Shown: piece after piece, positions 37,824-63,267 of the stretch
How the letters are laid out: the number at the start of each line of letters is the position of its first letter
How positions within the stretch are numbered: the stretch's first letter is position 1
Assembly (NCBI RefSeq): GCF_016793705.1
Contig: NZ_JAEULO010000043.1
Span: 351 to 64,350, forward strand
Length of the DNA: 64,000 nt
Direction of reading: 5' to 3'
Source: Tabrizicola sp.
Lineage (GTDB): Bacteria > Pseudomonadota > Alphaproteobacteria > Rhodobacterales > Rhodobacteraceae
Made by a program: the position numbers and the translations under genes
The notes under the pieces: generated by a model
The model's database searches: none
What the model was told of the DNA's origin: nothing
Seen by the model: the letters and a program-made list of their open reading frames with translations, nothing else

Positions 37824-37861
37824 TGTGGCAGCGAAGCCCCGCAAAACCACAGGAGACGAAG

Positions 37862-42961: not shown

Positions 42962-43054
42962 CGCAGGGTTCCTGCACAGTCGGACCGTGACCTTGCCGAA
43001 ACCGCCCGCAGCGATTGCGGGCGGCCCCGGCATCCCTTTCCCCGAGGAACCAGA

Positions 43055-44074: not shown

Positions 44075-44076
44075 GC

Positions 44077-44829: not shown

Positions 44830-44876
44830 GATTGCTTTGATTGGCCGAGGTGGTCCGCCAGCGGAAAGGAGAAGAC

Positions 44877-45905: not shown

Positions 45906-45909
45906 GGCG

Positions 45910-47097: not shown

Positions 47098-47109
47098 CCG
47101 GAGACACCC

Positions 47110-48237
47110 ATGCCAACTGACCAGACTCTTGCCGACCGGCCCGAACCCCTTGTCGAGCGGCGCGACTATTCGCTGACCGGGCCAAGCGCGGCGCTGGCGA
47201 TCGAACGGGGGCTAGCCTCGGCCGAATGGTATCATTCCGATGTGCCGCGCAAGGTAATGAAAGAGTTGATGCAGCGCCGCGACGGACCGGCGATCCGCGA
47301 CACGCTGATCTGGCTGGGTCTTCTGGCCCTGACGGCTGCGGGCGGCATATATTTCTGGGGCAGCTGGTGGTGCGTGCCGTTCTGGGCAGTCTATGGCGTG
47401 CTGTACGGATCAGCCTGCGACAGCCGCTGGCACGAATGCGGCCATGGCACCGCCTTCCGCACGCCCTGGATGAACGATGCGGTCTACCAGATCGCCAGCT
47501 TCATGGTGATGCGCAACCCGGTGTCCTGGCGCTGGAGCCACGCCCGCCACCACACCGACACGATCATCGTCGGCCGCGATGCCGAGATCGCCTTCATGCA
47601 TCCGGCCTCGATCCTGCTGAACATCCTGCATTTCATCGGGATTGTGGACATCTGGCAGTGGATGAAGGTGCTGGTCCGCAACGCCGCAGGCCACCTCACC
47701 CCGGACGAGCGCGACTACATCCCCGAGGCCGAAGTCGGCAAGGCGATCTTCTGGGCCCGGGTGCATGTGGCCATCTATGCCCTGACCCTGGCGGCGGCGA
47801 TCTACTGGCGCACGATCCTGCCCTTCATGCTGATCGGCGGGCCGCGTATCTATGGCGCGTGGCACATGTTCATGACGGGCATGATCCAGCATGGCGGGCT
47901 GGCAGAGGATGTGCTCGACCACCGGCTGAACAGCCGCACCTGCCTGATGAACCCGGTCAGCCGCTGGATCTACTGGAATATGAACTACCATGTGGAGCAT
48001 CATATGTTCCCGATGGTGCCTTACCATGCGCTGCCGCGCCTGCATGAGGTCATCAGGAACGACCTGCCTGCGCCGACCCGCTCGATCCCGGCGGCCTTTG
48101 CCGAGATGGTGCCCGCGATCCTGCGCCAGCGGCGCGAGAAGGGATATTTCCTGAAAAAGACCCTGCCGCCGACCGCGCGCGCCTACCGCGAGGAGCTGCA
48201 CCAGACCATCCCCCACCGTGACGGACTGAAGGAGTGA
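47110..48237 (+). CDS. Membrane di-iron oxygenase, MocD-like (fatty-acid-desaturase superfamily)
   Basis: His boxes HECGH, HARHH, HVEHH; adjacent Rieske ferredoxin. Confidence 0.85.
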   Translation: MPTDQTLADRPEPLVERRDYSLTGPSAALAIERGLASAEWYHSDVPRKVMKELMQRRDGPAIRDTLIWLGLLALTAAGGIYFWGSWWCVPFWAVYGVLYGSACDSRWHECGHGTAFRTPWMNDAVYQIASFMVMRNPVSWRWSHARHHTDTIIVGRDAEIAFMHPASILLNILHFIGIVDIWQWMKVLVRNAAGHLTPDERDYIPEAEVGKAIFWARVHVAIYALTLAAAIYWRTILPFMLIGGPRIYGAWHMFMTGMIQHGGLAEDVLDHRLNSRTCLMNPVSRWIYWNMNYHVEHHMFPMVPYHALPRLHEVIRNDLPAPTRSIPAAFAEMVPAILRQRREKGYFLKKTLPPTARAYREELHQTIPHRDGLKE

Positions 48238-48242
48238 CCGCG

Positions 48243-48557
48243 ATGCAATGGGTTTCCGCCTGCGCCCTGGACGACATCGACCCCGAGGACCTGGTCCGCT
48301 TCGACCACGGCGGCAGGACCTATGCGATCTACCGCGATGAGGATGGCGCTGTCTTCGCCACCGATGGGCTTTGCACGCATGAGCAGGTGCATCTCTGCGA
48401 CGGGCTGGTGATGGGCGACGAGATCGAATGCCCCAAGCACAACGGTCGCTTCAACTACAAGACCGGCGAGGCCGAACGACTGCCTTGCGTGACCACGCTC
48501 AGGACCCATCCGGCGCGTGTGGTGGGCGAGATGATCGAGATCGGGCTGGAGGACTGA
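48243..48557 (+). CDS. Rieske [2Fe-2S] ferredoxin, MocE-like
   Basis: CTHEQVHL and ECPKHNGRF. Confidence 0.9.
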   Translation: MQWVSACALDDIDPEDLVRFDHGGRTYAIYRDEDGAVFATDGLCTHEQVHLCDGLVMGDEIECPKHNGRFNYKTGEAERLPCVTTLRTHPARVVGEMIEIGLED

Positions 48558-48558
48558 C

Positions 48559-49392
48559 ATGGCACGTACCCGCCCGACCGTTGCCGACCTGCGCGCCTGG
48601 AAGGGCAAGCGGCAGCTGACCATGCTGCGCCTCTTCACCCTCGACGAGGCCGCCGCCGCCGAAGAGGCCGGGATCGACCTGGTCTCGATTCCGCCGGATC
48701 TCGTGCTGGATCCGGAATACCGCAAGGTTGCACCCACGCTCTTCTCGATGTCGGGCATGGATCACCTTGGTGCGGGCACGCGGGAGGATTACCTGCGGCT
48801 TTGCGGCAAGCTGCTCTCCGCCGGGGCCGACGCGATGTATTGCTCGGCCAGCATCGACACCGTGCGCTATCTGGCGTCCGAGCATATCCCGGTGGTCGGC
48901 CATGTCGGCCTTGTCCCCAGCCGCGCCACCTGGACCGGCGGCTTCCGCGCTGTGGGCAAGACGGCGGATCAGGCGCTGGCGCTTTATAGGGAATGTCTGG
49001 CCTATGAGGCAGCCGGTGCGTTCGCGGTCGAGATCGAGGTCGTGCCCGAAGAAGTCGCAACCGAAATCAGCCACCGGATGAAGCAACTGCTTCTGTGGTC
49101 GATGGGGTCCGGGGCAGGCTGCGATGCGCAATACCTGTTTGCCATGGATATCCTGGGTGAGCATCGGGGAAAGATGCCCCGTCACTCCAAAGTTTACCGC
49201 GACTTTGCGGCGGAGTACGACCGCCTCCAGCGCGAGAGGGTGGCGGCCTTCACCGAATTCCGCACGGATGTTGAGACCGGCCGCTTCCCGGAGGCCCGCT
49301 TCACGCTGCACATGGTGCCCGAGGAACTGGCAAGGTTCAGTTCGGCGCTGGAGCAAGAGGGTATCGGGGCGGAAAGCACCGGCGAAACCTGA
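48559..49392 (+). CDS. Divergent PanB-like (ketopantoate hydroxymethyltransferase fold) protein
   Basis: PVVGHVGLVP, GGFRAVGK, VEIEVVP and GSGAGCDAQ are retained; LVGDS, ADLPF and VKIEG are absent. Confidence 0.8.
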   Translation: MARTRPTVADLRAWKGKRQLTMLRLFTLDEAAAAEEAGIDLVSIPPDLVLDPEYRKVAPTLFSMSGMDHLGAGTREDYLRLCGKLLSAGADAMYCSASIDTVRYLASEHIPVVGHVGLVPSRATWTGGFRAVGKTADQALALYRECLAYEAAGAFAVEIEVVPEEVATEISHRMKQLLLWSMGSGAGCDAQYLFAMDILGEHRGKMPRHSKVYRDFAAEYDRLQRERVAAFTEFRTDVETGRFPEARFTLHMVPEELARFSSALEQEGIGAESTGET

Positions 49393-49469: not shown

Positions 49470-50138
49470 TCAGGCCGCGACCAGCCGCAATATCGTATCG
49501 ATGTTGAAGTGGAGCCGCTCCTCCAGCGCCTCCTTGGTCATGAGGTCGCGCTCGAACACGATGGATCCGGTGAAACGGTTCGTCAGATAGTAATAGCCGA
49601 TGGCGGCGACCGTGATGTTCAACTGCACCGGGTCGACGCCCTTGCGGAAGACGCCCGCGGCAACACCGCGTTCGAGGATCGACTGAACCATCGAGACGAA
49701 TCGGCGGCTGTAGTCCTTCACCGTTTCCGACTTCTTCAGATGCTTGGCGCGGTGCAGGTTCTCGCTGTTCACCAGTGTGATGAATTCCGGGTTCTTCAGG
49801 TAATAGTCCCAGGTGAATCGGACCAGGCGTTCCAGGGCCTCGCGCGGGTCCAGATGGTCGAGATTCAGCTTCTGCTCCGCGATGCGGATATCGAGATAAG
49901 CGTTTTCCAGCACGGTCTGGAACAAGCGTTCTTTCGAATCGAAGTAGTGATAGATCATCCGTTTGTTTGCGCGCGCCTTCTCGGCGATCACGTCCACCCG
50001 CGCGCCGCCCAGGCCGCTCTTTGCAAATTCGCGCTTCGCGGCCTCCAGGATGCGGGCCTTTGTCGCCTCTGCATCCCGGATGCGCGGTTTCTGGGCAGGC
50101 TTCGCCTTCCCTTGGGCTGTGTTCTCACTGGCGTCCAT
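49470..50138 (-). CDS. TetR-family regulator (RutR-like C-domain)
   Basis: ILEAAKREFAKSGLGGARVDVIA, MIYHYF. Start re-assigned to 50138. Confidence 0.92.
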   Translation of the reverse strand: MDASENTAQGKAKPAQKPRIRDAEATKARILEAAKREFAKSGLGGARVDVIAEKARANKRMIYHYFDSKERLFQTVLENAYLDIRIAEQKLNLDHLDPREALERLVRFTWDYYLKNPEFITLVNSENLHRAKHLKKSETVKDYSRRFVSMVQSILERGVAAGVFRKGVDPVQLNITVAAIGYYYLTNRFTGSIVFERDLMTKEALEERLHFNIDTILRLVAA

Positions 50139-50256
50139 CAATCCACTCCCAGGGCATCGGTTTTTGCCGCCTGCGGCGCTGATCCCCTGCCTGCGACCAA
50201 AGCCCGCACTGTTGCAGGTTGCAACAAACATCTTGACTCGGGGGTCAGCTGTCAAG

Positions 50257-50275
50257 TAACCAGTTAGTGCATTAA
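50257..50275 (+). promoter_or_regulatory. Candidate operator/promoter motif copy 1
   Basis: TAACCAGTTAGTGCATTAA. Confidence 0.6.
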
Positions 50276-50368
50276 CGGAGAGGCGTGCGCTGATGACGCA
50301 GGTGTCCGCCCCCGCCGAAGGCAGGGCCACGCTTCCGTGGCATTGGAGTGGAAAAAGGGAGGGAATCC

Positions 50369-51481
50369 ATGTCCACGTTCATCAAGGACTTCGTCGAACG
50401 CGAGAAGATCAACCGTCGGAACTTCCTGTTCGCCTCGGCTGCCGGCCTGACGGCCACGGCAGTTCCGGGCATCCTCGGTCGCGGCGCGGCGTTTGCCGAC
50501 GCGGGTGGCTGGTCGCTGGCCTGGAGCTATCGTGACCGAGCCTCGGCCTACTGGAACGCCATCGTTTCGGGTGGTGAGGCCTATGTCGAGAGCCTTGGCT
50601 TGACCAAGGAAGACATGACGAACCTGATCAACGAGGGGTCGTCCGAAAAGTCGCTCGCCGACATCAAGGCCTTCCTTGCCAAGAATGCCGGCAAGGGCGC
50701 CATTGCCAGCGATCCGAACGACAGCCCGAACGCACGTCCGGTCGTGGAGGCGGTGCGGGACGCTGGCGGCTATGTCTCGACGATCTGGAACAAGACCGAT
50801 GACCTGCATCCCTGGGACATCGGCGACAACTATGTCGCGCACCTGTCCTGGTCGGGCGAAAAGCCCTCGGAGGACGCCGCGCGCCTGCTGTTCGAGAAGA
50901 TGGGTGGAGAAGGCGGCGTCGTCCATCTGGGCGGCATTCCGGCCAACATCCCGGCGGTCGAGCGCCTGAACGGCCTGAAGAACGCTCTGAAGGATTTCCC
51001 GAACATCGAGCTTCTGGACGAACAGTCCGCCGACTGGGACACCAACAAGGCCGCCGAGCTGATGTCGAGCTACCTGACCCGCTATGGCGACAAGATCAAG
51101 GGCGTGCACTGCGCCAACGACAACATGGCCTACGGGGTCATCGAGGCGCTGAAGGCGGAAGGTATTACCGGCATGCCGATCACCGCCTTCGACGGCAACC
51201 CGGAAGCGGTGGATCTGGTGATGAAGGGCGAGCTTCTGGCTACCGTCTTCACCAACCCGCATTGGGGTGGCGGCATCGCGCTGGCCCTGGCGCACCAGGC
51301 CGCCATCGGGGCCTTCAAGCCCTCGGAGGAGCCCAACGAGCATCGCGAGTTCTATGGGCCGTCGATCCTTGTCACTCAGGCAGATGCCGAAGAGTTCAAG
51401 AAGACCTACCTGGACGCGACCCCGACCTATGACTGGACTGATCGTTGGGGCCTGTCGGCGGGCGGTATTGTCTACAAGTAA
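50369..51481 (+). CDS. Sugar ABC substrate-binding protein, Tat-exported
   Basis: INRRNFLFA twin-arginine signal; RbsB-like HCANDNMAYG. Confidence 0.9.
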   Translation: MSTFIKDFVEREKINRRNFLFASAAGLTATAVPGILGRGAAFADAGGWSLAWSYRDRASAYWNAIVSGGEAYVESLGLTKEDMTNLINEGSSEKSLADIKAFLAKNAGKGAIASDPNDSPNARPVVEAVRDAGGYVSTIWNKTDDLHPWDIGDNYVAHLSWSGEKPSEDAARLLFEKMGGEGGVVHLGGIPANIPAVERLNGLKNALKDFPNIELLDEQSADWDTNKAAELMSSYLTRYGDKIKGVHCANDNMAYGVIEALKAEGITGMPITAFDGNPEAVDLVMKGELLATVFTNPHWGGGIALALAHQAAIGAFKPSEEPNEHREFYGPSILVTQADAEEFKKTYLDATPTYDWTDRWGLSAGGIVYK

Positions 51482-51493
51482 GGCCTGACCAAC

Positions 51494-51520
51494 GGGGAAC
51501 CGGGCGCAAGTCCGGTCCCC
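51494..51520 (+). terminator. Stem-loop after the binding-protein gene
   Basis: GGGGAACCGGGC-GCAA-GTCCGGTCCCC. Confidence 0.55.
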
Positions 51521-51562
51521 CAGCCTTTTGCCCCTGCGGGGCTGTCGCCAAGGGAGGGTGGC

Positions 51563-52528
51563 GTGACACGATTTCTGACCCGGGAAGCCGCCATCCGCTG
51601 GGCGCCCCTGCTGGTGCTGATCGCGCTGGTGATCCTGTTCACGGCGATCAATCCGGATTTCTTCGCGCAGCGGAACTTTGCCCGCATTGCGATTGCCGCG
51701 GCGCCCGCCCTGATGGTGGCGATCGGCGTGACCTTCATCATCGTCATGGGCTCGATCGACCTGTCGATGGAGGGCGCGGTTTCGCTGACGGCGGTGCTGT
51801 TCTGCTTCGCCTTCCTGTGGCTGGGGGGCACGTTGGCGGCAGGGGGGTGGCTGGCCATCCCGCTTGCCCTGATCGTCGGAGGACTGATCGGGCTGATCAA
51901 CGGGCTCGTTCATGTCAAGCTGCGCATCCCCTCCTTCATGGCAAGCCTGGCAATGGGGTTTGTCGGGACGGGTGCCGCCGTGCTGATCACCGGCGGCGAT
52001 ATCGTGCGGATCGAGGACGACACTTTCCGGGCGCTTCTGACCTGGCGCATCGCGGGCTTTCCGCTGATGGTCTATGTCGTGGTCATTCTGGCCTTCCTGG
52101 CCTGGTTCATCCAGAACCACACCACGCTGGGTCGGAACTTCTATGCCGTGGGTGGCGGCGAGGAGCTTGCCCACGCCTCGGGGCTGAACGTTCGGCGGGT
52201 TCGGATCACCGGTTTCGTGCTCGCGGGCGTGTTCTATGCCATCGCCGGGATGCTGCAGGTCGCCAAGCTGGGCCAGGCGGAATCGGTCACTGGCGCGAAT
52301 TTCATGTTCATCTCGATCACCTCGGTCGTGGTCGGGGGTGTCGCGCTCTGGGGTGGCATCGGCGGGGTCTGGAACACGGTCGTCGGCGTGCTGATCGTGA
52401 ACGTCATCAACAACGGCATGGTCGTGATCGGACTGCCCGACTATGTGCAGGACGGCATGCTGGGGCTTCTGGTGATCCTGGCAGTGGTCCTCTCGACCGA
52501 CCGGCGCAACATCAGCTTCGTGAAATAG
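51563..52528 (+). CDS. Sugar ABC permease
   Basis: GSIDLSM, IPSFMASL, SVVVGGVALWGG. Confidence 0.92.
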   Translation: MTRFLTREAAIRWAPLLVLIALVILFTAINPDFFAQRNFARIAIAAAPALMVAIGVTFIIVMGSIDLSMEGAVSLTAVLFCFAFLWLGGTLAAGGWLAIPLALIVGGLIGLINGLVHVKLRIPSFMASLAMGFVGTGAAVLITGGDIVRIEDDTFRALLTWRIAGFPLMVYVVVILAFLAWFIQNHTTLGRNFYAVGGGEELAHASGLNVRRVRITGFVLAGVFYAIAGMLQVAKLGQAESVTGANFMFISITSVVVGGVALWGGIGGVWNTVVGVLIVNVINNGMVVIGLPDYVQDGMLGLLVILAVVLSTDRRNISFVK

Positions 52529-52539
52529 GGGGGCGGGCG

Positions 52540-54045
52540 ATGTACGAACTCAAGGCGGTCGACAAGAAGTTTCCCGGTGTCCATGCGCTGAAGGCAGTGG
52601 ATTTCCAGGTCAAGCGCGGTGAGATCGTCGGCCTTGTCGGCGAGAACGGTGCCGGCAAGTCCACCCTGATGAAGGTGATCTACGGCGCCTATCAGCCCGA
52701 CGGCGGCACCATTACCATCGACGGCAAGACCGTGCGCTTCCAGAACCCGCGTCAGGCGATGGAAAAGGGCATCGGCATGGTGTTCCAGGAACAGTCGCTG
52801 ATTTCCAACCTGACGGTCATGGAGAACATCTTCCTGGGTTATGAAGCGCAGTTCGTGCGTCTGGGCGTGATCAACTGGAAGGCCATGGCCGAGGCTGCGC
52901 GAAAGCAACTGGCCAAGGTGAAGCTCGACATCGATCCGGCCACGGTGACGGCCAGCCTGTCCTTTGCGCAGCGCCAGCTGGTCGAGTTGGCCAAGGTGCT
53001 CACGCTTGAGGAGCGGGTCGACGGCGACCTGGTCATCCTTCTGGACGAGCCCACCAGTGTTCTGGCCGAGGACGAGGTCAAGATGCTGTTCCGCATCGTT
53101 CGCGACCTGACGGCACGGGCGAGCTTCATCTTTGTCAGTCACCGCATGGACGAGGTGATGGAGCTTTCCGACCGAATCTATGTGATGAAAGACGGGGCGG
53201 TGGTCGATGTGGTCAACCGGGGCGGCGCCACGGTCGAGCAGATCCAGCACAAGATGGTGGGCCGCAACGTCGACCGGGAATATTACCGTGAGCAGCGCCA
53301 GAAACCCTATGATGACAGCCGCCAGCTGGTGAAGCTGGAGGACGTTGGCCTGCCGGGTCGGATCAGCGACATCTCGCTGACCCTGCATCCGGGCGAGGTA
53401 TTGTGTCTGGTTGGTACCGAAGGCTCGGGCCGCGAGGCGATCCTGCGCACGATCTACGGGATGCGGACCCCCGTGACCGGGCATGTCACGATGAAGGGCG
53501 CGCGGATCGAACGCTTCACCCCGCAGGCGGCGGTCGCGAAGGGCGTCGGCTATGTCCCGCGCGAACGCAAGGTCGAGGGCATCGTCGCGGGGATGAACGT
53601 TTACGAGAACATGACGCTGTCGCAGATGGGTCATTTCTCGAACGCCGGCGTTCTGCGTGTCGGCGAAGAGCGCAAGCTGGCGCGCGACTGGATCGGAAAG
53701 CTGTCGATCAAGGCGCATTCCGAATACGCCGATTGTGGCAACCTTTCAGGCGGGAACCAGCAGAAGGTGGTACTGGCAAAGTGGCGATCCGGCGGGTCGG
53801 ACATCATGCTTCTGGATCACCCGACGCGCGGCCTCGACATCGGCGCCAAGGAAGACGTCTACGAGATGATCCGCGACATGTGCGACGACGGAGTGGGTGT
53901 CATCCTGGTCGCCGACACGCTGGAAGAGGCGATCGGGCTTTCTCACACGATCATCGTCCTCAAGGACGGCCGCATCCAGAAACGCTTTGACTGCGAGCCG
54001 GGCAAGAAGCCTTCGCTTTACGATCTCCTGCACGCGATGATCTGA
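52540..54045 (+). CDS. Sugar ABC ATPase (two-domain, RbsA-like)
   Basis: GENGAGKST, LSGGNQQKVV. Start re-assigned to 52540. Confidence 0.93.
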   Translation: MYELKAVDKKFPGVHALKAVDFQVKRGEIVGLVGENGAGKSTLMKVIYGAYQPDGGTITIDGKTVRFQNPRQAMEKGIGMVFQEQSLISNLTVMENIFLGYEAQFVRLGVINWKAMAEAARKQLAKVKLDIDPATVTASLSFAQRQLVELAKVLTLEERVDGDLVILLDEPTSVLAEDEVKMLFRIVRDLTARASFIFVSHRMDEVMELSDRIYVMKDGAVVDVVNRGGATVEQIQHKMVGRNVDREYYREQRQKPYDDSRQLVKLEDVGLPGRISDISLTLHPGEVLCLVGTEGSGREAILRTIYGMRTPVTGHVTMKGARIERFTPQAAVAKGVGYVPRERKVEGIVAGMNVYENMTLSQMGHFSNAGVLRVGEERKLARDWIGKLSIKAHSEYADCGNLSGGNQQKVVLAKWRSGGSDIMLLDHPTRGLDIGAKEDVYEMIRDMCDDGVGVILVADTLEEAIGLSHTIIVLKDGRIQKRFDCEPGKKPSLYDLLHAMI

Positions 54046-54054
54046 GGGACAGAG

Positions 54055-54996
54055 ATGGATATCCAGCGACTGAAACCGCATTTTCCCTGGATCACCTTGC
54101 TGGTCCTGGTGATCTTCGTCGGCCTGAATGACCCGAACTTCCTGAAACCGGCCAACCTTCTGTCTCTGGCTGGGGATATCGTGCCCCTGTTCATCATGGC
54201 GCTTGGCCTGACCTTCGCAATCTACATCGGCGGGATCGACCTGTCGGCTCAGTCTATGGCGAACATGATCACGGTTGTTGCCTCCGTCTATCTCGCGTCG
54301 CTGGGGATCTGGGTCGCGCTTTTGTGCGTGGCGATCGGCTTTGCCCTCGGGATGCTGTCAGGCTTCATCACCACCCGACTGTTCGTGCCTTCCTTCATCT
54401 CGACGCTGGCTGTCGGCGGGCTGTGCTTTTCGATGGCGCAGTGGCTGTCGGGCAATCGCGCGCTGAACATGGATGCCGCCGAACGCGATGCGCTGTTCGG
54501 CTGGATGATCGGCCGCACCGGTATCATTCCGAACGAACTGTTCCTGGCGGTGGCCTTGCTGGCAATCTGCCTCTTCATCGAACGGCGCACCACGCTCGGC
54601 CGCGCCTTGAAGGCGGTGGGCGCGGGCGAGCTTGCGGCAGCGGCCTCGGGCGTGAACGTGGCCCGCTTCAAGATGCTGGCCTTCGCGATTTCGGGCGCGC
54701 TGGCTGCGGTGGCAGGGCTTCTGTTCGCGGTCAAGCTGTCCGGTGGGGCGCCGACGATTGCCAACGGCTTCCTGTTGCCTGCCATCGTCGCGGTTCTGGT
54801 CGGTGGCACGCCGCTGACCGGCGGCGTGGGCGGGGTGCTGAACACCGCCATAGGTACGCTGATCGTGGCGGTGATCCGGGCCTCGATGCTGTATTTCGGG
54901 GTCGAGGCAACGCAGCAGCAGATGGTCTTCGGACTTGTGCTGATCGCGGCCATCGCGCTGACGATGGATCGGTCCAAGCTGCGGACAGTCAAGTAA
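54055..54996 (+). CDS. Sugar ABC permease 2
   Basis: GGIDLSA, VPSFISTL, AVLVGGTPLTGG. Confidence 0.92.
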   Translation: MDIQRLKPHFPWITLLVLVIFVGLNDPNFLKPANLLSLAGDIVPLFIMALGLTFAIYIGGIDLSAQSMANMITVVASVYLASLGIWVALLCVAIGFALGMLSGFITTRLFVPSFISTLAVGGLCFSMAQWLSGNRALNMDAAERDALFGWMIGRTGIIPNELFLAVALLAICLFIERRTTLGRALKAVGAGELAAAASGVNVARFKMLAFAISGALAAVAGLLFAVKLSGGAPTIANGFLLPAIVAVLVGGTPLTGGVGGVLNTAIGTLIVAVIRASMLYFGVEATQQQMVFGLVLIAAIALTMDRSKLRTVK

Positions 54997-55056
54997 CACA
55001 AGGCAGGCGAGCAGCGGACAAGACGTCGCAGGCGGCGGCTCTTCGTTGACATTTTG

Positions 55057-55075
55057 TAACCAAACAGTTACTTAA
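55057..55075 (+). promoter_or_regulatory. Candidate operator/promoter motif copy 2
   Basis: TAACCAAACAGTTACTTAA, just downstream of a TTGACA (55046-55051). Confidence 0.62.
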
Positions 55076-55116
55076 TGCGCATCGCAGGCGTAAGACGACT
55101 CATGAGGGGGAAGACC

Positions 55117-56613
55117 ATGGACAAGACCACCAGATCGCTTTCGTTGCCCGAAGCCCCGCGCGAATTCGGCTTCTGGTTGGATGGCGTCTGGGAAGCTGGG
55201 CGAGATTTCTTCGACCGCAGTTCCCCGGGGCACGGAACGCCGGTGACGCGCATCCCGAAATGCACGGTGGATGACCTGAACGCCGCCGTTTCCGCCGCGC
55301 GCCGCGCGTTCGAGGATCGCAGCTGGGCCGGCTTGCCGGGGGCCGAGCGGGCCGGGGTACTGCTGCGCACCGCAGAAATCCTGCGTCGCCGCCGCGACGA
55401 GATCGCCTATTGGGAAGTGCTGGAGAACGGCAAGCCCATCGCCCAGGCGCGGGGCGAGATCGACCATGCCATCGCCTGCTTCGAGGTGGGGGCCGGCGCG
55501 GCGCGGATGCTGCATGGCGACAGTTTCAACAGCCTTGGCGACAATCTCTTCGGTATGGTCCTGCGCGAGCCCGTCGGCGTCGTGGGGCTGATCACGCCCT
55601 GGAACTTCCCCTTCCTGATCCTGTGCGAGCGGGTACCCTTCATCCTCGCCTCGGGCTGCACGATGGTGGTGAAGCCTTCGGAAGTGACCAGCGCGACCAC
55701 TCTCCTGCTCGGAGAAATCCTGGCCGAGGCGGGGTTGCCGAAGGGGGTCTACAACGTCGTTACCGGATCGGGCCGAACCATCGGTCAGGCACTGACCGAG
55801 CATCCGGATGTGGACATGCTGTCGTTCACCGGATCGACCGGGGTGGGGCGGTCGGTGGTTCATGCCGCCGCCGACAGCAACTTCAAGAAACTGGGGCTGG
55901 AACTGGGCGGCAAGAATCCGATCATGGTCTTTGCCGATGCCGATCTGGAAGATGCCGCAGACGCCGCCGCCTTTGGCATCAGCTTCAACACCGGCCAGTG
56001 CTGCGTGTCCTCCAGCCGCCTGATCGTCGACCGCCGTGTTGCACTCGAGTTTGAAAAACTTCTGGCGGCCAAGATGAACAAGATCGTCGTCGGAGATCCC
56101 CTGCACGAGACGACCCAGGTCGGGGCCATCACCACGGATGCGCAGAACCAGACGATCCTGTCCTATATCGAAAAGGGCAAGGGCGAGGGGGCAAGAGTCG
56201 TGACCGGCGGCTCTGCGCTGGATCTTGGCCGGGGCAGCTATATTGCGCCGACGCTGTTCACCGGCGTGAAACGGGAAATGTCGATCGCCCGGGACGAGAT
56301 CTTCGGGCCGGTGTTGTCTTCATTCCAGTTCGAGACGGTGGAGGAGGCGATCCAGCTTGCCAACGATACCGTCTACGGGCTGGCGGCAAGCGTCTGGTCG
56401 AAGAACATCGATACCGCGCTAACCGTCTCGCGCCGGGTCCGTGCCGGGCGGTTCTGGGTCAACTGCATCATGGCCGGGGGGCCGGAAATGCCGCTTGGCG
56501 GATTCAAGCAATCCGGCTGGGGCCGCGAAGCTGGCATCTACGGTGTCGAGGAGTACACCCAAGTGAAATCGGTCCATGTCGAAATCGGCAAACGCAATCA
56601 CTGGATCAAGTGA
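55117..56613 (+). CDS. NAD(P)-dependent aldehyde dehydrogenase, L-sorbosone dehydrogenase-like
   Basis: PWNFP, FTGST, LELGGK, GQCCV, EIFGPV. N-terminus PREFGFWLDG...FFDRSSP recalls Gluconobacter SNDH. Confidence 0.85.
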   Translation: MDKTTRSLSLPEAPREFGFWLDGVWEAGRDFFDRSSPGHGTPVTRIPKCTVDDLNAAVSAARRAFEDRSWAGLPGAERAGVLLRTAEILRRRRDEIAYWEVLENGKPIAQARGEIDHAIACFEVGAGAARMLHGDSFNSLGDNLFGMVLREPVGVVGLITPWNFPFLILCERVPFILASGCTMVVKPSEVTSATTLLLGEILAEAGLPKGVYNVVTGSGRTIGQALTEHPDVDMLSFTGSTGVGRSVVHAAADSNFKKLGLELGGKNPIMVFADADLEDAADAAAFGISFNTGQCCVSSSRLIVDRRVALEFEKLLAAKMNKIVVGDPLHETTQVGAITTDAQNQTILSYIEKGKGEGARVVTGGSALDLGRGSYIAPTLFTGVKREMSIARDEIFGPVLSSFQFETVEEAIQLANDTVYGLAASVWSKNIDTALTVSRRVRAGRFWVNCIMAGGPEMPLGGFKQSGWGREAGIYGVEEYTQVKSVHVEIGKRNHWIK

Positions 56614-56614
56614 G

Positions 56615-58216
56615 ATGGCCAAGGGATATGACTATGTGATCGTGGGCGGAGGTTCGGCAGGTTGTGTCCTCGCCGCCCGCCTGTCCGAGGACCCCGCTGT
56701 TCGGGTCTGCCTGATCGAGGCGGGGGGCAAGGACAGCAATCCCCTGATCCATATGCCGGTGGGGTTTGCCAAGATGACCACCGGCCCGCTGACCTGGGGC
56801 CTGGTGACGGCGCCGCAGAAACACGCCAACAATCGCGAGATTCCCTACGCTCAGGCCAAGGTGCTTGGCGGCGGCTCATCCATCAACGCCGAGATTTTCA
56901 CGCGTGGTCATCCGTCGGACTATGACCGCTGGGCGAATGAAGAGGGGGCCGAGGGCTGGGGATTCAGGGACATCCAGAAATACTTCCTGCGCTCTGAGGG
57001 CAACACCATCCTGTCCGGGACATGGCATGGCACAGATGGTCCGTTGGGTGTTTCGAACCTTCCCGCGCCGAACGCGATGTCGCGCGCCTTCGTGCAAGGT
57101 GCTCAGGAACTGGGTCTGCCCCACAGCGCGGATTTCAATGGTGCGGTGCAGGAAGGCGCCGGGATGTACCAGCTTACGGTCCGGGGAAACCGGCGCTGCT
57201 CGGCGGCGGTGGGCTATCTCCGCCCGGCTCTGAAGCGGCCGAACCTGACGCTGATCACCGGCGCTCTGGTGCTAAGGCTGGTATTCGCGGGAAAGCGGGC
57301 AGTTGGGGTGGAATACGCCGCTCGCGGTCAGGTGGCGGTCGCGCGGGCGGAGAACGAAGTCATCGTGACCTCGGGGGCCATCGGCAGCCCGAAGCTTCTG
57401 ATGTTGTCGGGGCTTGGGCCCGCAGCGCAACTGCGCGCGCAGGGGATCGAGGTGCAACAGGACCTGCCGGGGGTCGGCCAGAACCTGAACGACCATTTCG
57501 GCATCGATATCGTGGCCGAGCTCAAGGGCCACGACAGCCTGGATAAATACGGCAAGCCGCATTGGGCGCTCTGGGCCGGCATGCAGTATTTCCTGTTCAA
57601 CTCTGGCCCCGTCACCTCGAACGTGGTCGAGGCAGGCGCCTTCTGGCATTCGGACGGGCAGGTGGCCAGCCCCCCGGATTTGCAGTTCCACTTCCTGGCA
57701 GGTGCGGGCGCCGAGGCCGGGGTTCCAAGCGTGCCGAAGGGATCGTCAGGCATCACCCTGAACAGCTATACGCTGCGGCCCAAGGCGCGTGGGTCCGTCA
57801 CGCTGCGGTCGGCCGATCCGCGCGACCTGCCGGTCGTCGATCCGAACTTCCTGGGCCATCCCGACGATCTGAAGATTTCGACCGAAGGGGTGAAGATCAG
57901 CCGGGAAATCTTCAGCCAGCCATCGCTTCAGAGATACATCAAGACTATCCGCTTCCCCGACACGAGCGTGAAGACCCAGGCCGATTTCGAGGCCTATGCG
58001 CGGCAGTATGGTCGGACGTCCTACCACCCGACCTGCACCTGCAAGATGGGCAAGGACGAGATGTCGGTCGTCGACCCGCAGTTGCGGGTGCGTGGCGTGG
58101 ACGGGTTGCGTGTCTGTGACAGTTCGGTGATGCCCTCGCTGATCGGGTCGAACACCAATGCACCGACCATCATGATCGCCGAGAAAGCCGCCGACATGAT
58201 CCGGGGCAATCACTAG
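56615..58216 (+). CDS. GMC-family FAD oxidoreductase, L-sorbose dehydrogenase-like
   Basis: GGGSAG, GGGSSIN, YHPTCTCKMG, SNTNA. Strongly recalls Gluconobacter SDH. Confidence 0.85.
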   Translation: MAKGYDYVIVGGGSAGCVLAARLSEDPAVRVCLIEAGGKDSNPLIHMPVGFAKMTTGPLTWGLVTAPQKHANNREIPYAQAKVLGGGSSINAEIFTRGHPSDYDRWANEEGAEGWGFRDIQKYFLRSEGNTILSGTWHGTDGPLGVSNLPAPNAMSRAFVQGAQELGLPHSADFNGAVQEGAGMYQLTVRGNRRCSAAVGYLRPALKRPNLTLITGALVLRLVFAGKRAVGVEYAARGQVAVARAENEVIVTSGAIGSPKLLMLSGLGPAAQLRAQGIEVQQDLPGVGQNLNDHFGIDIVAELKGHDSLDKYGKPHWALWAGMQYFLFNSGPVTSNVVEAGAFWHSDGQVASPPDLQFHFLAGAGAEAGVPSVPKGSSGITLNSYTLRPKARGSVTLRSADPRDLPVVDPNFLGHPDDLKISTEGVKISREIFSQPSLQRYIKTIRFPDTSVKTQADFEAYARQYGRTSYHPTCTCKMGKDEMSVVDPQLRVRGVDGLRVCDSSVMPSLIGSNTNAPTIMIAEKAADMIRGNH

Positions 58217-58252
58217 GCACGAAGGGGGGCGGTCGTGCCGCCCCGTCGCGCT

Positions 58253-59071
58253 TCAGTCGAAATCGGGGGCGTAGGGCACCCGGTCCCTGCTGATGATGCG
58301 GTAGCCAGTAGCTGTCATCGCCTCGATCCGCGCCATGTCGATCGCCGACAGGGTGAAGTCCATGACCTCGTAATTCGCGCGGATGTTGGCAGGTCTCGTC
58401 GACATGGTGTTGATCGTGACACCCTTTTGCAAAATCCAGCGCAGCGCGACCTGGGCGGCGGACTTGCCGTAGCCCGCACCGATTTCCGCGAAGAGCGGAT
58501 ACTTGAACACCTCGCCCCGCGCGACCGAGCAGAAGGAGGACAGCGGGATGCCGGTCTCGATCGACGCAGCCAGCAGGCGTGACTGGTCGAGGAGGGGATG
58601 AAACTCCACCTGGTTGGTCACAAGCGGCGTGTCGAGCAGGCCTCGCGCATGGCGCATCATGGCGGCGGTGTGGTTGGAAAGGCCGATGTTCGTTGCCAGT
58701 CCGCGCTTGTGGGCCTGATCCAGAAGGCGCAACGAAAGATCGATCTCGCCGCCCGGTGTGGGCCAGTGGAGAAGCAGGACGTCCACCCGGTCCACCCGCA
58801 ATGCCTTCAGCGAAGCCTCGACCGAAGGCAGGAAACGCGCTTCGGTATAGTTCTCGACCCCAACCTTGGTGGTGATGCACAACCGGTCGCGCGGCACGCC
58901 GCATTCGGCCAGCGCCGCGCCGGTGTCGGCCTCGTTGCCGTACATCTGCGCCGAATCAAAAGCGCGATAGCCCACGTCGACGGCGGCGAAGATCGCAGCG
59001 CGCAGATCATCTCCCTTCAACGGGAAAGTGCCAAACGCGCGCTGATGATTAAGCTGAAACAGGATGTTCAT
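58253..59071 (-). CDS. Aldo-keto reductase (DkgA/DkgB-like)
   Basis: FDSAQMYGNE, ITTK, LLLHWP, NQVEFHP. Start re-assigned. Confidence 0.88.
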   Translation of the reverse strand: MNILFQLNHQRAFGTFPLKGDDLRAAIFAAVDVGYRAFDSAQMYGNEADTGAALAECGVPRDRLCITTKVGVENYTEARFLPSVEASLKALRVDRVDVLLLHWPTPGGEIDLSLRLLDQAHKRGLATNIGLSNHTAAMMRHARGLLDTPLVTNQVEFHPLLDQSRLLAASIETGIPLSSFCSVARGEVFKYPLFAEIGAGYGKSAAQVALRWILQKGVTINTMSTRPANIRANYEVMDFTLSAIDMARIEAMTATGYRIISRDRVPYAPDFD

Positions 59072-59163
59072 TGTCGCTTCCCCCTCTGTCTTCTGTCCGT
59101 AGCCGAATGGGCCGGACTGCAACTGACCCCTTGAAATCAGTCGCGACTCTGAGTATCTAGTTA

Positions 59164-59182
59164 TAACTGGTTAGTTACTTAA
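59164..59182 (+). promoter_or_regulatory. Candidate operator/promoter motif copy 3
   Basis: TAACTGGTTAGTTACTTAA. Confidence 0.62.
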
Positions 59183-59206: not shown

Positions 59207-60778
59207 GTGTCGAAGGTCAGGACTCCAGCCCAGGCAGCGCGGCTTGTCGCCGATGGCGCAACCGTCGCCGTCAATTCGTCGTCCGGGCTGCTTTGCCCCG
59301 ATGAAGTGCTGAAGGCCCTGGGTGAACGCTTCCTGACGGAAGGCGCGCCGCGCGATCTGACGACCGTTCATCCCATTGCCGCAGGTGACATGTTCGGCAC
59401 AAAGGGTGTGGATCACATCGCGCACAAGGGCATGATCCGGCGCATCATCGGGGGTTCCTACCCCTCTGGGCCGACAAATGCCGAACCGCCGCTGATCTGG
59501 CAGCGGATCCTGGCCGAGGACCTGGCCGCCTGGAACGTGCCCTCGGGCATCATCTTCGACATGCTGCGCGAGGGTGCTGCGAAGCGGCCCGGCGTGCTGA
59601 CCAAGGTGGGGATGGACACTTTCGTCGATCCGGAACTGGATGGCTGCGCGATGAATGCCAGCGCACGGGCGATGCCGCTGGTCCGGCGGATGGATTTCGA
59701 CGGGGACACCTGGCTTCACTTCCCGGCAATCCGGCCCGATGTGGCGATCATCCGTGCCTCGACCGCCGACGAGAATGGCAACCTGACCTTCGAGCAGGAG
59801 GGGGCGACGCTGGGCGCCATGGAAATGGCGCTGGCCGCCCGCAATTCTGGCGGGCTGGTCATCGCCCAGGTGCGGCGGGTGGCCGCGCAGGGGACGCTGA
59901 AGCCGCATGACGTGCGGGTTCCGGGGATCCTGGTCGATGTCATCGTCGAGGCGCCTGACCAGCTTCAGACCACGGCGACCGCCTATGATCCGGCGATTTC
60001 GGGCGAACTGTTCCGACCGCTGCACACCTTCCGCCGGGCCGAGTACAACCCGGCGAAGGTGATGGCGCGCCGCGTGGCGATGGAACTGAGGGACGGCTGG
60101 GCGGTGAACATCGGCTTCGGCATTTCGGCGAATGTACCACGCATCCTTCTGGAGGAGGGGCTGCACGGTAAGGTGACATGGGTCATCGAGCAGGGCGCGG
60201 TGGGCGGGGTGCCGCTTCTGGACTTCAAGTTCGGCTGTGCCGCCAATGCCGAGGCCTTCGTCGCCTCGCCGCACCAGTTCCTGTATTTCCAGGCGGGTGG
60301 GTTTGATTGTTCGCTGCTGTCGTTCCTGGAGGTCGGCGCGGACGGCTCGGTCAACGTCAGCCGCCTGTCGGCAACGCCGCACCGCACGGCCGGGGCGGGC
60401 GGGTTCGTTGACATCACCTCTCGCGCGCGGAAGATCGTTTTCAGCGGCAACTTCAACGCCGGCGCAAAGATGCGGCTGGAGGACGGGCGCCTTGTCATCG
60501 ACAAGGAGGGCAGGATCGCCAAGTTCGTGTCCCGGGTCGATCAGGTCAGCTTTTCGGGCAAGCGCGCGCTGGCGCAGGGGCAGGACGTGACCTATGTCAC
60601 CGAACGCTGCGTCATCCGCCTGGAGGAAGAGGGGCTGACCGTGACCGAGATAGCGCCCGGACTGGATTTGCAGCGCGACATCCTGGATCAGGCCGCGACG
60701 CCTCTGCGCATCTCGCCCGGTCTCAAGGAAATGGACGCAGCGCTGTTCCGGCCGGAACCTCTGGGACTGGTTCTGTGA
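59207..60778 (+). CDS. Family I fused acyl-CoA transferase (YdiF/Pct-like)
   Basis: RPGVLTKVGMDTFVDP, ADENGNL, catalytic-Glu segment IEQG, GAGGFVDI. GTG start after AAAGGA. Confidence 0.88.
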   Translation: MSKVRTPAQAARLVADGATVAVNSSSGLLCPDEVLKALGERFLTEGAPRDLTTVHPIAAGDMFGTKGVDHIAHKGMIRRIIGGSYPSGPTNAEPPLIWQRILAEDLAAWNVPSGIIFDMLREGAAKRPGVLTKVGMDTFVDPELDGCAMNASARAMPLVRRMDFDGDTWLHFPAIRPDVAIIRASTADENGNLTFEQEGATLGAMEMALAARNSGGLVIAQVRRVAAQGTLKPHDVRVPGILVDVIVEAPDQLQTTATAYDPAISGELFRPLHTFRRAEYNPAKVMARRVAMELRDGWAVNIGFGISANVPRILLEEGLHGKVTWVIEQGAVGGVPLLDFKFGCAANAEAFVASPHQFLYFQAGGFDCSLLSFLEVGADGSVNVSRLSATPHRTAGAGGFVDITSRARKIVFSGNFNAGAKMRLEDGRLVIDKEGRIAKFVSRVDQVSFSGKRALAQGQDVTYVTERCVIRLEEEGLTVTEIAPGLDLQRDILDQAATPLRISPGLKEMDAALFRPEPLGLVL

Positions 60779-61548
60779 GCGACGAGCGGCTTGATCTGGT
60801 CATCTCCGACGGCATCGCCACGCTGACGATCCGCCGGGCCGAGAAGCACAATGCGCTGGACGCCGAGATGGTCGACGCGCTCATGCCGCTATGCCGCAAG
60901 ATCGAACGGTCGGATGCTTTCGTGGTGATCCTGACTGGCGAGGGTGGCAAGGCGCTGAGCGCGGGCGGGGATATCTCCGCCTGGTCGGCGCTGTCGCCAG
61001 AGGATTTCGGGCGGCACTGGCTGCGCGACGGGCATCAGGCCTTCGACTCCCTGGCCCGTCTGCGCCAGCCGGTCATCGCGGTGCTGAACGGCAGTGCCCT
61101 TGGTGGAGGACTGGAGCTTGCCGCCTGCGCCGATCTGCGCATCGCCGAGTCTCATGTCAAGATCGGCCTGCCGGAAACCGGGCTGGGCATCATTCCGGGC
61201 TGGTCCGGCACCCAGCGCACGTCCCGGCGTTTCGGCGGGCAGGTGGTCCGCCGGATGGCCCTGTTCGGCGAGGTGTTCGGCGCGGACGAGGCGCTGCGGC
61301 TTGGGCTCGTCGATCAGGTGGTGGTGACGGGGGCCGGCATGGATGCGGCGATGGAGCTTGCCGCCCGGCTGAGGGCCCGGTCGTCGCGGGCGACAGAACT
61401 CGTCAAGATGCTGGTCAACGCAGCCGAGGGTGAGGAACAAGGGCGTGTTCTGGAGGCGCTGGCCGGAACCGTTGCCGCCGCCTCGCCCGACCTGGCCGAG
61501 GGGCTGGCTGCCTATCGGGAGCGGCGCAAGCCGGACTTCCGGAAGTGA
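60775..61548 (+). CDS. Enoyl-CoA hydratase/isomerase (crotonase)
   Basis: AGGDI, GGGLE and LPE (both catalytic Glu positions present). Confidence 0.9.
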   Translation: MSDERLDLVISDGIATLTIRRAEKHNALDAEMVDALMPLCRKIERSDAFVVILTGEGGKALSAGGDISAWSALSPEDFGRHWLRDGHQAFDSLARLRQPVIAVLNGSALGGGLELAACADLRIAESHVKIGLPETGLGIIPGWSGTQRTSRRFGGQVVRRMALFGEVFGADEALRLGLVDQVVVTGAGMDAAMELAARLRARSSRATELVKMLVNAAEGEEQGRVLEALAGTVAAASPDLAEGLAAYRERRKPDFRK

Positions 61549-62804
61549 ACGGGCAGGACCGCGCCTTCCTGACCGGCCTGTTCGAAGCCGTCGTCATGGC
61601 GGCGGACCCACGGAATGCGCTTGCCACCAATCTGCCAGAGCCGCCCAGGGGCCGGACGGTGGTGATCGGCGCGGGCAAGGGCGCGGCTCAGCTCGCGGCG
61701 GCGTTTGAAACCTTGTGGCGGGGTCCGTTCGAGGGCGTGGTCGTCACGCGCTATGGCTACGGATGTCCCACGCGGCAGATCAAGGTGATCGAAGCTTCCC
61801 ATCCCGTTCCCGATGCGGCCGGGTTGGCGGCCAGCGCGTCGCTGTTCGACGCCGTAAGCGGTCTTACATCAGACGATCTGGTCGTGGTGCTGGTCTGCGG
61901 CGGCGGCTCGGCGCTGCTTCCCTGCCCGGCGGGCGGCCTGACGCTGGAGGACGAGATTGCGCTGAATCGCGCTCTCTTGGCTTCCGGGGCGCCGATCTCG
62001 GTGATGAACGCAATCCGGAAGCAGGTTTCAGGCATCAAGGGCGGACGGCTTGCTCTGGCCTGTCATCCAGCGCGGGTGGTGACGCTGGTCGTCTCGGACG
62101 TTCCGGGGGACGATCCGGCGCAGGTGGCGTCCGGCCCCACGGTTCCCGATGCAACAACGCGCGCGGCGGCGCGAGCCATGGCGCTGCACTGGAGGGTCGA
62201 TCTGCCTCCGCGCGTTGCGACCTGGCTGGAGGGCGACGACGGCCTGGCTCCCGATCCGGCGGACCCGCGTTTTGCCGCCAACGAGGTGAAGGTCATTGCC
62301 TCGGCCCGCCTGTCGCTGGAATCGGCGGCGGCCCGGGCAGAAGGGCAGGGTGTTCCAGCCGTGATCCTGTCAGATGCGATCGAGGGAGAGGCACGCGACG
62401 TTGGCCGGGTCCACGCCGCCATCGCCCGGGAGGTGGCGCAGCGAGACAGGCCATTTGCAAAGCCCGTGGTCATTCTGTCGGGCGGAGAAACCACAGTGAC
62501 GCTGCGCGGCGCGGGACGTGGCGGCCGCAACAGCGAATTCCTGCTGGCGCTGGCATTGGCCGCGGAAGATGTGCCCTTCGCGGCACTGGCTGCTGATACC
62601 GATGGGATCGACGGCTCCGAGGTCAACGCTGGCGCATTTGCCACGGGCGCGACGGCCAGCCGCTTGCGCGCGATCGGGCTTGATCCGGCGCAGCTTCTTG
62701 CCGGCAACGATAGCTATACTGCTTTCGCCGCGCTGACTGACCTGTTCGTGCCAGGGCCGACTGGCACCAATGTGAATGATTTCCGCGCCATCCTGCTGCG
62801 CTGA
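61545..62804 (+). CDS. Glycerate 2-kinase (TtuD/MOFRL family)
   Basis: IGAGKG, EASHPVPD, GGGSAL, GGETTV, GTNVND. Confidence 0.9.
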   Translation: MNGQDRAFLTGLFEAVVMAADPRNALATNLPEPPRGRTVVIGAGKGAAQLAAAFETLWRGPFEGVVVTRYGYGCPTRQIKVIEASHPVPDAAGLAASASLFDAVSGLTSDDLVVVLVCGGGSALLPCPAGGLTLEDEIALNRALLASGAPISVMNAIRKQVSGIKGGRLALACHPARVVTLVVSDVPGDDPAQVASGPTVPDATTRAAARAMALHWRVDLPPRVATWLEGDDGLAPDPADPRFAANEVKVIASARLSLESAAARAEGQGVPAVILSDAIEGEARDVGRVHAAIAREVAQRDRPFAKPVVILSGGETTVTLRGAGRGGRNSEFLLALALAAEDVPFAALAADTDGIDGSEVNAGAFATGATASRLRAIGLDPAQLLAGNDSYTAFAALTDLFVPGPTGTNVNDFRAILLR

Positions 62805-62811
62805 GGCCGGG

Positions 62812-63267
62812 TCAGACCTGCATCATCAGCTGGTTGCGACCGCTCTGCACCACTTCGTCGTACTGATTCAACGCAGAAACCTCGAAGCTGACGATCCCGC
62901 GATCCGCCCTTCTGCTCAGGCGCTTGCCCTCGACCACCAGAACCGAGCGAATGCTGTCGCCCAGCAGAACGGGCGCATGGAAGCTCCAGCTCCAGTTGAG
63001 CGAGGCAATCGCGGCCAGTTGCGCCGGGGCCTGGTTCTTGAGCCCGTCGATCACTGACAGCACAAGAAGCCCATGCGCCACCCGGGTCGGAAACCCGAGC
63101 CTCCGGGCGGCGGCTTCGTCCATGTGAAGGGCGAAGCGGTCGCCGCTCAGATCGGCGAACCGATCTATCATTCCGTCATCGATCATGGCGCGCCCGGTCT
63201 CGATCCGGTCGCCGACGGCAAGGTCGCCGTAGCGATGCATGCCTGCCGCAAGACGTCGGCCCGTCAT
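62812..63267 (-). CDS. MaoC-family (hot-dog) acyl-CoA dehydratase
   Basis: FADLSGDRFALH hydratase-2 motif; VAHGLL. Confidence 0.85.
   Translation of the reverse strand: MTGRRLAAGMHRYGDLAVGDRIETGRAMIDDGMIDRFADLSGDRFALHMDEAAARRLGFPTRVAHGLLVLSVIDGLKNQAPAQLAAIASLNWSWSFHAPVLLGDSIRSVLVVEGKRLSRRADRGIVSFEVSALNQYDEVVQSGRNQLMMQV

Follow-up and report, generated by a model that had tools for sequence, protein, structure and literature searches.

Three short palindromic sites in a 64,000-nucleotide stretch of DNA from Tabrizicola sp. (RefSeq assembly GCF_016793705.1, contig NZ_JAEULO010000043.1; this whole stretch is called the window below) are, judging from comparative sequence evidence and with a probability of roughly 0.85, operators of a TetR-family repressor encoded at 49470-50138, which would control three promoters of one gene cluster. 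The promoters would belong to a sugar-type ABC transporter operon, a gene pair for an aldehyde dehydrogenase (ALDH) and a GMC flavoprotein dehydrogenase, and a CoA-transferase operon. A first-pass annotation of the window had noticed the sites as a shared 19-bp motif and had proposed one regulon under the adjacent TetR, a proposal which the comparative evidence supports.

Sequence retrieval confirmed the three 19-mers and the count of 11 invariant positions out of 19 (positions 1-4, 10-12 and 16-19):

50257-50275, + strand, copy 1, TAACCAGTTAGTGCATTAA
55057-55075, + strand, copy 2, TAACCAAACAGTTACTTAA
59164-59182, + strand, copy 3, TAACTGGTTAGTTACTTAA

As had been said, and as the gene coordinates bear out, the copies precede the ABC operon, the ALDH-GMC pair and the CoA-transferase operon. 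The distance from the end of each copy to the start codon of the following gene is 94 nt for copy 1 (binding protein, ATG at 50369), 42 nt for copy 2 (ALDH, ATG at 55117) and 25 nt for copy 3 (CoA-transferase, GTG at 59207). Adjacency to the TetR gene was true of copy 1 only; the minus-strand neighbour of copy 3 encodes an aldo/keto reductase. The pattern TAACN5AGTN3TTAA, a post hoc pattern taken from the copies themselves, matched three times in the window and still three times with one mismatch, compared to 0.02 expected from shuffles. The palindromic template AAGTAAC-N6-GTTACTT, derived from other genomes and used with a threshold of at least 11/14, was a fairer test. It found exactly three sites in the window, all of them in the three promoter-bearing gaps of the cluster. 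When the sequence was shuffled within 100-bp blocks, which keeps the local composition, 0.34 template sites were found per window and 0.6% of the shuffles reached three. The three sites, which we treat as candidate operators, were as follows:

50254-50273, unstranded, operator O1, AAGTAAC-CAGTTA-GTGCATT; contains copy 1 and overlaps the putative -10/start region of the ABC promoter
55054-55073, unstranded, operator O2, TTGTAAC-CAAACA-GTTACTT; contains copy 2 and lies within the -35/-10 spacer
59161-59180, unstranded, operator O3, TTATAAC-TGGTTA-GTTACTT; contains copy 3, begins 1 nt past the putative -10 and covers the expected start site

Judged by its conservation, the unit is a 20-22-bp imperfect palindrome, tAAGTAACyAr-yTrGTTACTTa, and the TAAC...AGT...TTAA invariants of the 19-mers are its projection on one strand. 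The two 7-bp arms have their centres 13 bp apart, slightly more than one helical turn, so that both arms lie on roughly the same face of the DNA. Half-sites pooled from the orthologous loci gave tAAGTAACyA, with Y at 97% and A at 74%. Both of these positions lie outside the search template and are nevertheless informative, indicating a genuine dyad that reaches past the template. The N6-spaced dyad GTAAC-N6-GTTAC was the only register common to all sites in the window and in the orthologues. Embedded TAAC..GTTA dyads, as described in the first-pass annotation, were present with N2 spacing in copies 1 and 3, while copy 2 had none. That all copies face the same way turned out not to be meaningful: the core is palindromic, so orientation is no property of the element, and in orthologous loci such as L002 and L006 the ALDH copy fits the 19-mer pattern on the opposite strand. 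The left arm of O1 is the consensus and its right arm is the conserved variant GTGCRTT. In 49/59 loci across two orders the tetR-proximal right arm was GTGCRTT(A), not the palindromic GTTACTT, and to judge from this conservation the variant is under selection. A perfect 10-bp palindrome, AGTTATAACT, was also observed at 59159-59168, where it overlaps the left arm of O3; it was not seen in the orthologues.

Conservation of the sites was evaluated in 80 loci retrieved with the TetR protein (70-89% identity) from Rhodobacterales, Rhizobiales, Geminicoccaceae and Gluconobacter, across which the gene cluster was strongly syntenic. Sites of at least 11/14 were counted within the span of the mapped orthologous genes. 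The 32.5 kb of intergenic DNA held 86 sites (mean 0.61 and maximum 4 in shuffled intergenic DNA), and none was found in 594 kb of coding DNA. Phylogenetic footprinting, one of the checks which the first-pass annotation had itself named, came out in favour of its reading, with sites in 54/59 of the gaps between tetR and the binding-protein gene and in 6/6 of those between the CoA-transferase gene and the first aldo/keto reductase gene (AKR1). All three gaps between CoA-transferase and GMC genes had a site (3/3) as well. No sites were detected in gaps that have no promoter, namely permease/binding-protein gaps (0/57) and convergent AKR1/GMC gaps (0/38). Upstream of ALDH, 10/33 gaps had a site, every one of them a long gap, and about half of these sites came after a TTGACA hexamer; some long gaps were without a site, but those that carry a TTGACA hexamer all had one. 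Short upstream gaps of 10-40 nt had no site, and in these clusters ALDH is evidently transcribed together with the ABC operon. The alignment upstream of tetR showed a footprint of CTTGACT, about 18 nt, and aAGTAACyAGwTAGTGCRTTAa, and the sites before ALDH and CoA-transferase read (A/G)TAAC-N6-GTTAC(T/A)(T/A). In other genomes the operator was also present ahead of GMC paralogues, a VOC-family gene, an acyl-CoA dehydrogenase gene, a GlcG-like gene and the genes for a second aldo/keto reductase (AKR2) and a MaoC dehydratase. In one S. meliloti locus (L189, strain M162 pSymA, 3980-4586) a ParD/RelE-ParE toxin-antitoxin pair was inserted between the AKR and GMC genes.

A search in the reverse direction, starting from the motif, was carried out with AAGTAACNAGNTAGTGCNTTA (18 specified bases) in 185,579 genomes comprising 596 Gb. 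It gave 109 matches, about 100 of which returned the same cluster. The start of a tetR orthologue was 99-433 bp away in 93/109, and 5/109 adjoined a binding-protein orthologue, 4 of those at the edge of the stored stretch. One match lay in the CoA-transferase/AKR1 gap (L118) and one just upstream of a GMC paralogue (L161). The remaining 9/109 were outside the cluster, 7 of these 9 in AT-rich unrelated genomes (34-49% G+C), which is near the chance expectation.

The palindrome was also found beside paralogues of the TetR that have other neighbours. In A. vitis, a paralogue gene (53% identity) and a CUT1 ABC operon are arranged divergently, and AAATAAC-GAAGTG-GTTACTT (13/14) is located in the gap that they share, being the sole match of at least 10/14 in 10.6 kb. 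ATATAAC-CATATG-GTTACTA was found upstream of a paralogue in Rhizobium sp. 11515TR (46% identity), and a Sulfitobacter paralogue (40.5% identity), encoded beside shikimate dehydrogenase and TRAP genes, had AATGAAC-CATGCG-GTTAATT. More distant TetR paralogues had drifted palindromes. Since the same type of palindrome occurs beside non-homologous neighbours of paralogous TetRs, it tracks the regulator lineage and not the target genes. Paralogues of 40-45% identity in Ralstonia, Rhizobium and Sulfitobacter (L191 and L194-L196) were encoded beside genes for shikimate dehydrogenase, 3-dehydroquinate dehydratase and TRAP/MFS transporters, which suggests that a sister lineage controls the use of quinate/shikimate.

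The regulator itself was assigned as follows:

49470-50138, - strand, tetR, encoding a 222-aa TetR-family regulator with a TetR_N helix-turn-helix (HTH) and a TetR_C_29 domain; divergent from the ABC operon, and orthologous to SMa1428 of S. meliloti

In Pfam, the N-terminal HTH matched PF00440 (E 2.8e-12, residues 30-74) and the C-terminal part matched PF17938, TetR_C_29 (E 1.2e-44, residues 98-216). The latter would, by this match, be the all-helical ligand-binding/dimerisation domain of the TetR family, and the 20-bp AAGTAAC-N6-GTTACTT agrees with the palindromes of about 15-30 bp that serve this family as operators close to the regulator gene. Mean column conservation of the HTH region across the 80 orthologues was 88%. 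As determined with Pfam for the proteins of the window, tetR was the only regulator gene in the cluster, and no other conserved regulator was found among the orthologous loci or in the S. meliloti cluster. The closest PDB match of the TetR was 2D6Y (E 6e-21), the database names were all generic, and no characterised close relative was found. An AlphaFold2 model was all-helical with a mean predicted local distance difference test score of 64.5, too poor for a fold search, and was not used. No description turned up in literature searches on the motif, the TetR, a regulator of sndh/sdh, PF17938 or the S. meliloti locus tags, and these tags were not mentioned in any main text of the searchable literature.

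Placement of the operators was compared with putative promoters, called as follows:

50233-50238, + strand, -35-like hexamer TTGACT of the putative ABC promoter, conserved as TTGACN in the orthologous gaps
55046-55051, + strand, putative -35 hexamer TTGACA of the ALDH-GMC promoter, present likewise at 5/10 of the orthologous ALDH-upstream sites
59131-59159, + strand, putative CoA-transferase promoter, TTGAAA (59131-59136), a 17-nt spacer and TATCTA (59154-59159), with a conserved cccTTGA

Contrary to the first-pass annotation, copy 2 does not overlap the TTGACA promoter hexamer; the hexamer ends 5 nt upstream of the 19-mer and the motif fills the -35/-10 spacer. The distance from the -35-like hexamer to the operator was constant within each promoter class, and the window agreed with all three classes. 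In the ABC class it was 15 nt in 38/49 and 14 nt in 8/49 orthologues (15 nt in the window). In the ALDH class, 3 nt separated TTGACA from the operator in 5/10 orthologues (2 nt in the window), and in the CoA-transferase class the distance was 22-24 nt in 5/9 orthologues (24 nt in the window). Sites over the -35, -10 and +1 positions are typical of repression in the TetR family, and all three operator placements are classic for steric repression. We propose that a homodimer of the TetR repressor would bind each 20-bp operator. Occupancy of O1 would cover the -10/start region of the ABC transporter promoter, at O2 it would fill the -35/-10 spacer of the ALDH-GMC promoter, and at O3 it would cover the start region of the CoA-transferase promoter. 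Because the operators overlap putative core promoter elements, bound repressor would exclude RNA polymerase. A pathway substrate or intermediate would then bind the C-terminal domain, free the repressor and turn on uptake and catabolism together. The mechanism is very probably a standard TetR-type repression switch, ordinary in kind but conserved in many Alphaproteobacteria.

Transcription start data were available for S. meliloti 1021, in which the whole cluster is located on pSymA (SMa1406-SMa1428). In the published start-site map, the mRNA of tetR (SMa1428) starts at 786766 from the promoter TTTGAC-N18-GTATGA, and no mRNA start is assigned to the SMa1427 (ABC) or SMa1409 (CoA-transferase) operons; the only start that the map gives for SMa1409 is internal, in sense direction within the coding region (PMC3616915, supplementary tables). 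This map fits an expressed repressor with silent targets. SMa1415 (ALDH) has two start sites, its operon is transcribed, and only a weak 10/14 site was found there; control of SMa1415 may be looser in S. meliloti. Metatranscriptome contigs of the source activated-sludge community showed flat, low depth and no transcript ends. Most Gluconobacter RNA-seq contigs spanned tens of kb; one run suggested separate ALDH-side and tetR-side transcripts, at a resolution too low for start sites.

Control of tetR itself through the operator is doubtful. In S. meliloti about 104 nt separate the operator (786643-786662) from the start site of tetR, and autoregulation by promoter overlap is therefore not supported in that species. 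The conserved right flank of O1, GTGCGTTAA, was considered as the -35 element of an overlapping divergent tetR promoter and was ruled out in S. meliloti, where the mapped tetR promoter is about 100 nt away. In the window, the centre of O1 is 126 nt from the ATG of tetR. On the strand that reads towards tetR (50250-50255, - strand), a perfect TTGACA directly abuts O1 (GTTACTTGACA). This hexamer was not conserved in close relatives, and thus any tetR autoregulation here would be lineage-specific.

Several points weigh against simple repression of the three promoters by this TetR. No reports of binding, footprints, mutants or induction for any TetR orthologue were found in the searchable literature. 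Synteny alone, with tetR and the ABC operon kept together, could account for part of the tetR-motif association at the tetR-proximal site; the sites beside the paralogues speak against this. The right arm of O1 (GTGCATT) is off the palindrome. An E. coli-type promoter scan of the three gaps gave no promoter, so the promoter calls depend on the conserved -35 hexamers alone. Finally, the weak ALDH site of S. meliloti is located 17-36 nt downstream of a mapped start, off the promoter. The conserved synteny would in part suit a palindrome bound by another transcription factor encoded elsewhere, such as a global carbon regulator, with the TetR having some other role here or none. We consider this highly unlikely, since TetR paralogues of 40-53% identity beside CUT1 ABC or TRAP/shikimate dehydrogenase genes carry the same type of N6 palindrome upstream, the cluster lacks a second conserved regulator gene, and only three sites are present in the window, unlike what a global regulator would show.

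A TetR that is an activator or dual regulator, or of which two dimers bind in a second register, would differ from simple occlusion of a promoter by one dimer. The conserved off-consensus right arm of O1 and the S. meliloti ALDH site downstream of its start would agree with this, as would the N2 dyad TAAC-NN-GTTA, which O1 and O3 hold 2 bp off the N6 dyad. However, the N2 dyad is absent from O2, from most ALDH sites and from many CoA-transferase sites, and in about one third of the tetR-proximal sites it is broken (GATA) at a core position while the N6 arms are kept; it was rejected as the recognised unit. Given also the site positions typical of repression, and the expression of tetR alongside silent targets in S. 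meliloti, an activating or two-dimer mode appears improbable. A reading of the motif as some promoter element (an unusual -10, an extended promoter or an alternative sigma site) or as AT-rich promoter DNA that is alike by chance was judged extremely unlikely. The sites do overlap putative core promoters, and the intergenic DNA is AT-rich in a genome of 66% G+C, but the element is dyad-symmetric and the composition-matched shuffles gave far fewer sites (0.34 per window against 3 observed, and 0.61 per 32.5 kb of intergenic DNA against 86). Moreover, three different distances from the -35 (2, 15 and 24 nt) cannot belong to one promoter element. CtrA (TTAA-N7-TTAA) and EcfG (GGAAC-N16-CGTT) sites were also considered, and their spacing does not fit.

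The genes of the cluster in the window, assigned with Pfam and the orthologue map, were as follows:

50369-54996, + strand, CUT2-type sugar ABC transporter operon
50369-51481, + strand, binding protein with a Tat signal, ABC operon
51563-52528, + strand, permease, ABC operon
52525-54045, + strand, two-domain ATPase, ABC operon
54055-54996, + strand, permease, ABC operon
55024-55048, + strand, hairpin resembling a terminator, located between ABC operon and ALDH promoter (3 overlapping calls, 0.1 expected)
55117-56613, + strand, ALDH, orthologue of Gluconobacter L-sorbosone dehydrogenase (SNDH)
56576-58216, + strand, GMC flavoprotein dehydrogenase, directly downstream of ALDH
58253-59071, - strand, aldo/keto reductase AKR1 (DkgB-like), divergent from the CoA-transferase operon
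59207-60778, + strand, CoA-transferase (YdiF-like), S. meliloti SMa1409
60775-61548, + strand, enoyl-CoA hydratase, S. meliloti SMa1408
61545-62804, + strand, DUF4147/MOFRL glycerate 2-kinase-like protein, S. meliloti SMa1406
62812-63267, - strand, MaoC dehydratase, next to AKR2
63264 onward, - strand, aldo/keto reductase AKR2, truncated at the end of the window

A longer CoA-transferase reading frame from ATG 59183 was not backed by the start codons of the orthologues, and GTG 59207 was used instead. AKR2 and MaoC are probable further members of the regulon, with a promoter beyond the window end; operators were found upstream of their orthologues in three loci (L009, L013 and L030). In most orthologous clusters a gene for a Zn-dependent alcohol dehydrogenase of about 343 aa was present between the last permease and ALDH (52 tblastn hits, e.g. 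L002:4090-5121). The window is cleanly without it at 54996-55117, and the 120-bp gap left there holds the hairpin, TTGACA and the operator. The ALDH matched the G. oxydans SNDH structures 7W5K and 7W5L with E values of about 1e-267 (7W5L, 8.7e-268 over residues 4-497). Since this ALDH is orthologous to L-sorbosone dehydrogenase, ALDH-GMC is the counterpart of the sndh-sdh pair. A reduced cluster without the ABC transporter is present in the Gluconobacter loci L067, L078 and L079, in which tetR lies next to ALDH, GMC, CoA-transferase and glycerate kinase genes. An operator-like AAGTAAC-CAGATG-GTGCG is located about 160 bp upstream of tetR there, with more sites before the CoA-transferase and acyl-CoA dehydrogenase genes. 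In one Gluconobacter RNA-seq run the depth of the ALDH-GMC contig was about 13x that of the tetR contig.

The enzymes of the cluster point to a route for a sugar or polyol that would lead from uptake through alcohol/aldehyde oxidation (SDH/SNDH-type enzymes and reductases) and CoA-thioester chemistry to glycerate and 2-phosphoglycerate. A glyceryl-CoA step has been proposed for deoxyribonate catabolism (PMC6365646), and the pairing of CoA-transferase with glycerate kinase recalls that step, by analogy only. Tentatively, the TetR and its GTAAC-N6-GTTAC operators may mark an uncharacterised sugar/polyol pathway found across the Alphaproteobacteria, comprising CUT2 uptake, Zn-dependent alcohol, GMC and aldehyde dehydrogenases, aldo/keto reductases, a YdiF-like CoA-transferase, enoyl-CoA and MaoC hydratases, an acyl-CoA dehydrogenase and a glycerate 2-kinase, with the same repressor possibly also over the Gluconobacter sndh-sdh genes. 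The analysis links a highly conserved TetR, which bears a generic annotation only, to a putative operator and a putative regulon of several operons. The operator can be used to list member genes, and has already added GMC paralogues, the VOC protein, acyl-CoA dehydrogenase and AKR2-MaoC in other genomes. The cluster of the model organism S. meliloti 1021 (SMa1406-SMa1428, pSymA) offers an experimental entry point, and a repressor with its operator beside orthologues of the industrially used sndh-sdh genes could serve strain engineering or an inducible switch.

Two other regions of the window were observed. A separate locus at 40690-49392 contains a LacI-family regulator gene (40690-42102, - strand) divergent from another CUT2 ABC transporter (41876-44829), followed by genes for a 2-hydroxyacid dehydrogenase, a DUF4432 protein, a fatty-acid-desaturase-like and Rieske pair and a ketopantoate-hydroxymethyltransferase-like protein. 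No GTAAC-N6-GTTAC site was found in this locus. At 36305-38359 a Ku-domain gene (- strand) is located by an ECF sigma gene of the EcfG/PhyR-sigma2-like type (37319-37792) and a DUF892 gene (37817-38359), which is a typical general-stress-response neighbourhood.

The system was compared with known TetR-family regulators. It resembles Tn10 TetR/tetO in having a small two-domain HTH regulator, a palindromic operator placed over putative promoter elements, a regulator gene divergent from a transporter and an expected release by ligand. It differs from Tn10 in that at least three separate catabolic promoters, instead of a single efflux gene, would be controlled, and the operator sequence is unrelated to tetO; nor does the S. 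meliloti tetR promoter overlap the operator as the tetR and tetA promoters of Tn10 overlap each other. A multi-operon catabolic regulon, a palindrome containing AAC and GTT, and CoA-thioester enzymes are shared with KstR and KstR2, the actinobacterial TetR repressors with the motif TnnAACnnGTTnnA. The TetR is not an orthologue of these repressors, and its sequence similarity to KstR2 was weak (E 4e-6). The arm spacing is also different (here N6 between GTAAC and GTTAC), as are phylum and pathway. With BetI-betBA, which serves choline conversion to glycine betaine, the cluster has in common a TetR-family repressor over an ALDH and GMC dehydrogenase pair. Identity with the BetI choline regulon was rejected. 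The C-terminal domain is TetR_C_29 with no BetI-type C-terminal hit, and the ALDH scored 451 bits against the NCBIfam BADH model (cut-off 669) and the GMC protein 495 against betA (cut-off 732). The sugar-type CUT2 transporter and the CoA-transferase, hydratase and glycerate kinase genes are further differences.

The TetR_C_29 paralogues beside shikimate/quinate genes (cf. B. pseudomallei BP1026B_II1561, PMC11358695) have the same Pfam architecture at 40-45% identity, their genes are likewise divergent from a transporter gene, and some of them carry related TAAC/GTTA palindromes upstream. They differ in their target genes and in half-site drift (AATGAAC, CTAAC), and are not orthologues. The enzyme pair resembles sndh-sdh of G. 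oxydans in having an ALDH orthologous to SNDH and the same ALDH-then-GMC order. The searchable literature yielded neither a regulator nor an operator for sndh-sdh. In the Gluconobacter loci the identity was 75% for ALDH and 74% for GMC, and L067, L078 and L079 have a tetR orthologue by the pair, with operator-like sites. Unlike in Gluconobacter, the pair is part of a larger cluster for uptake and CoA-dependent steps in the window and in most Alphaproteobacteria.

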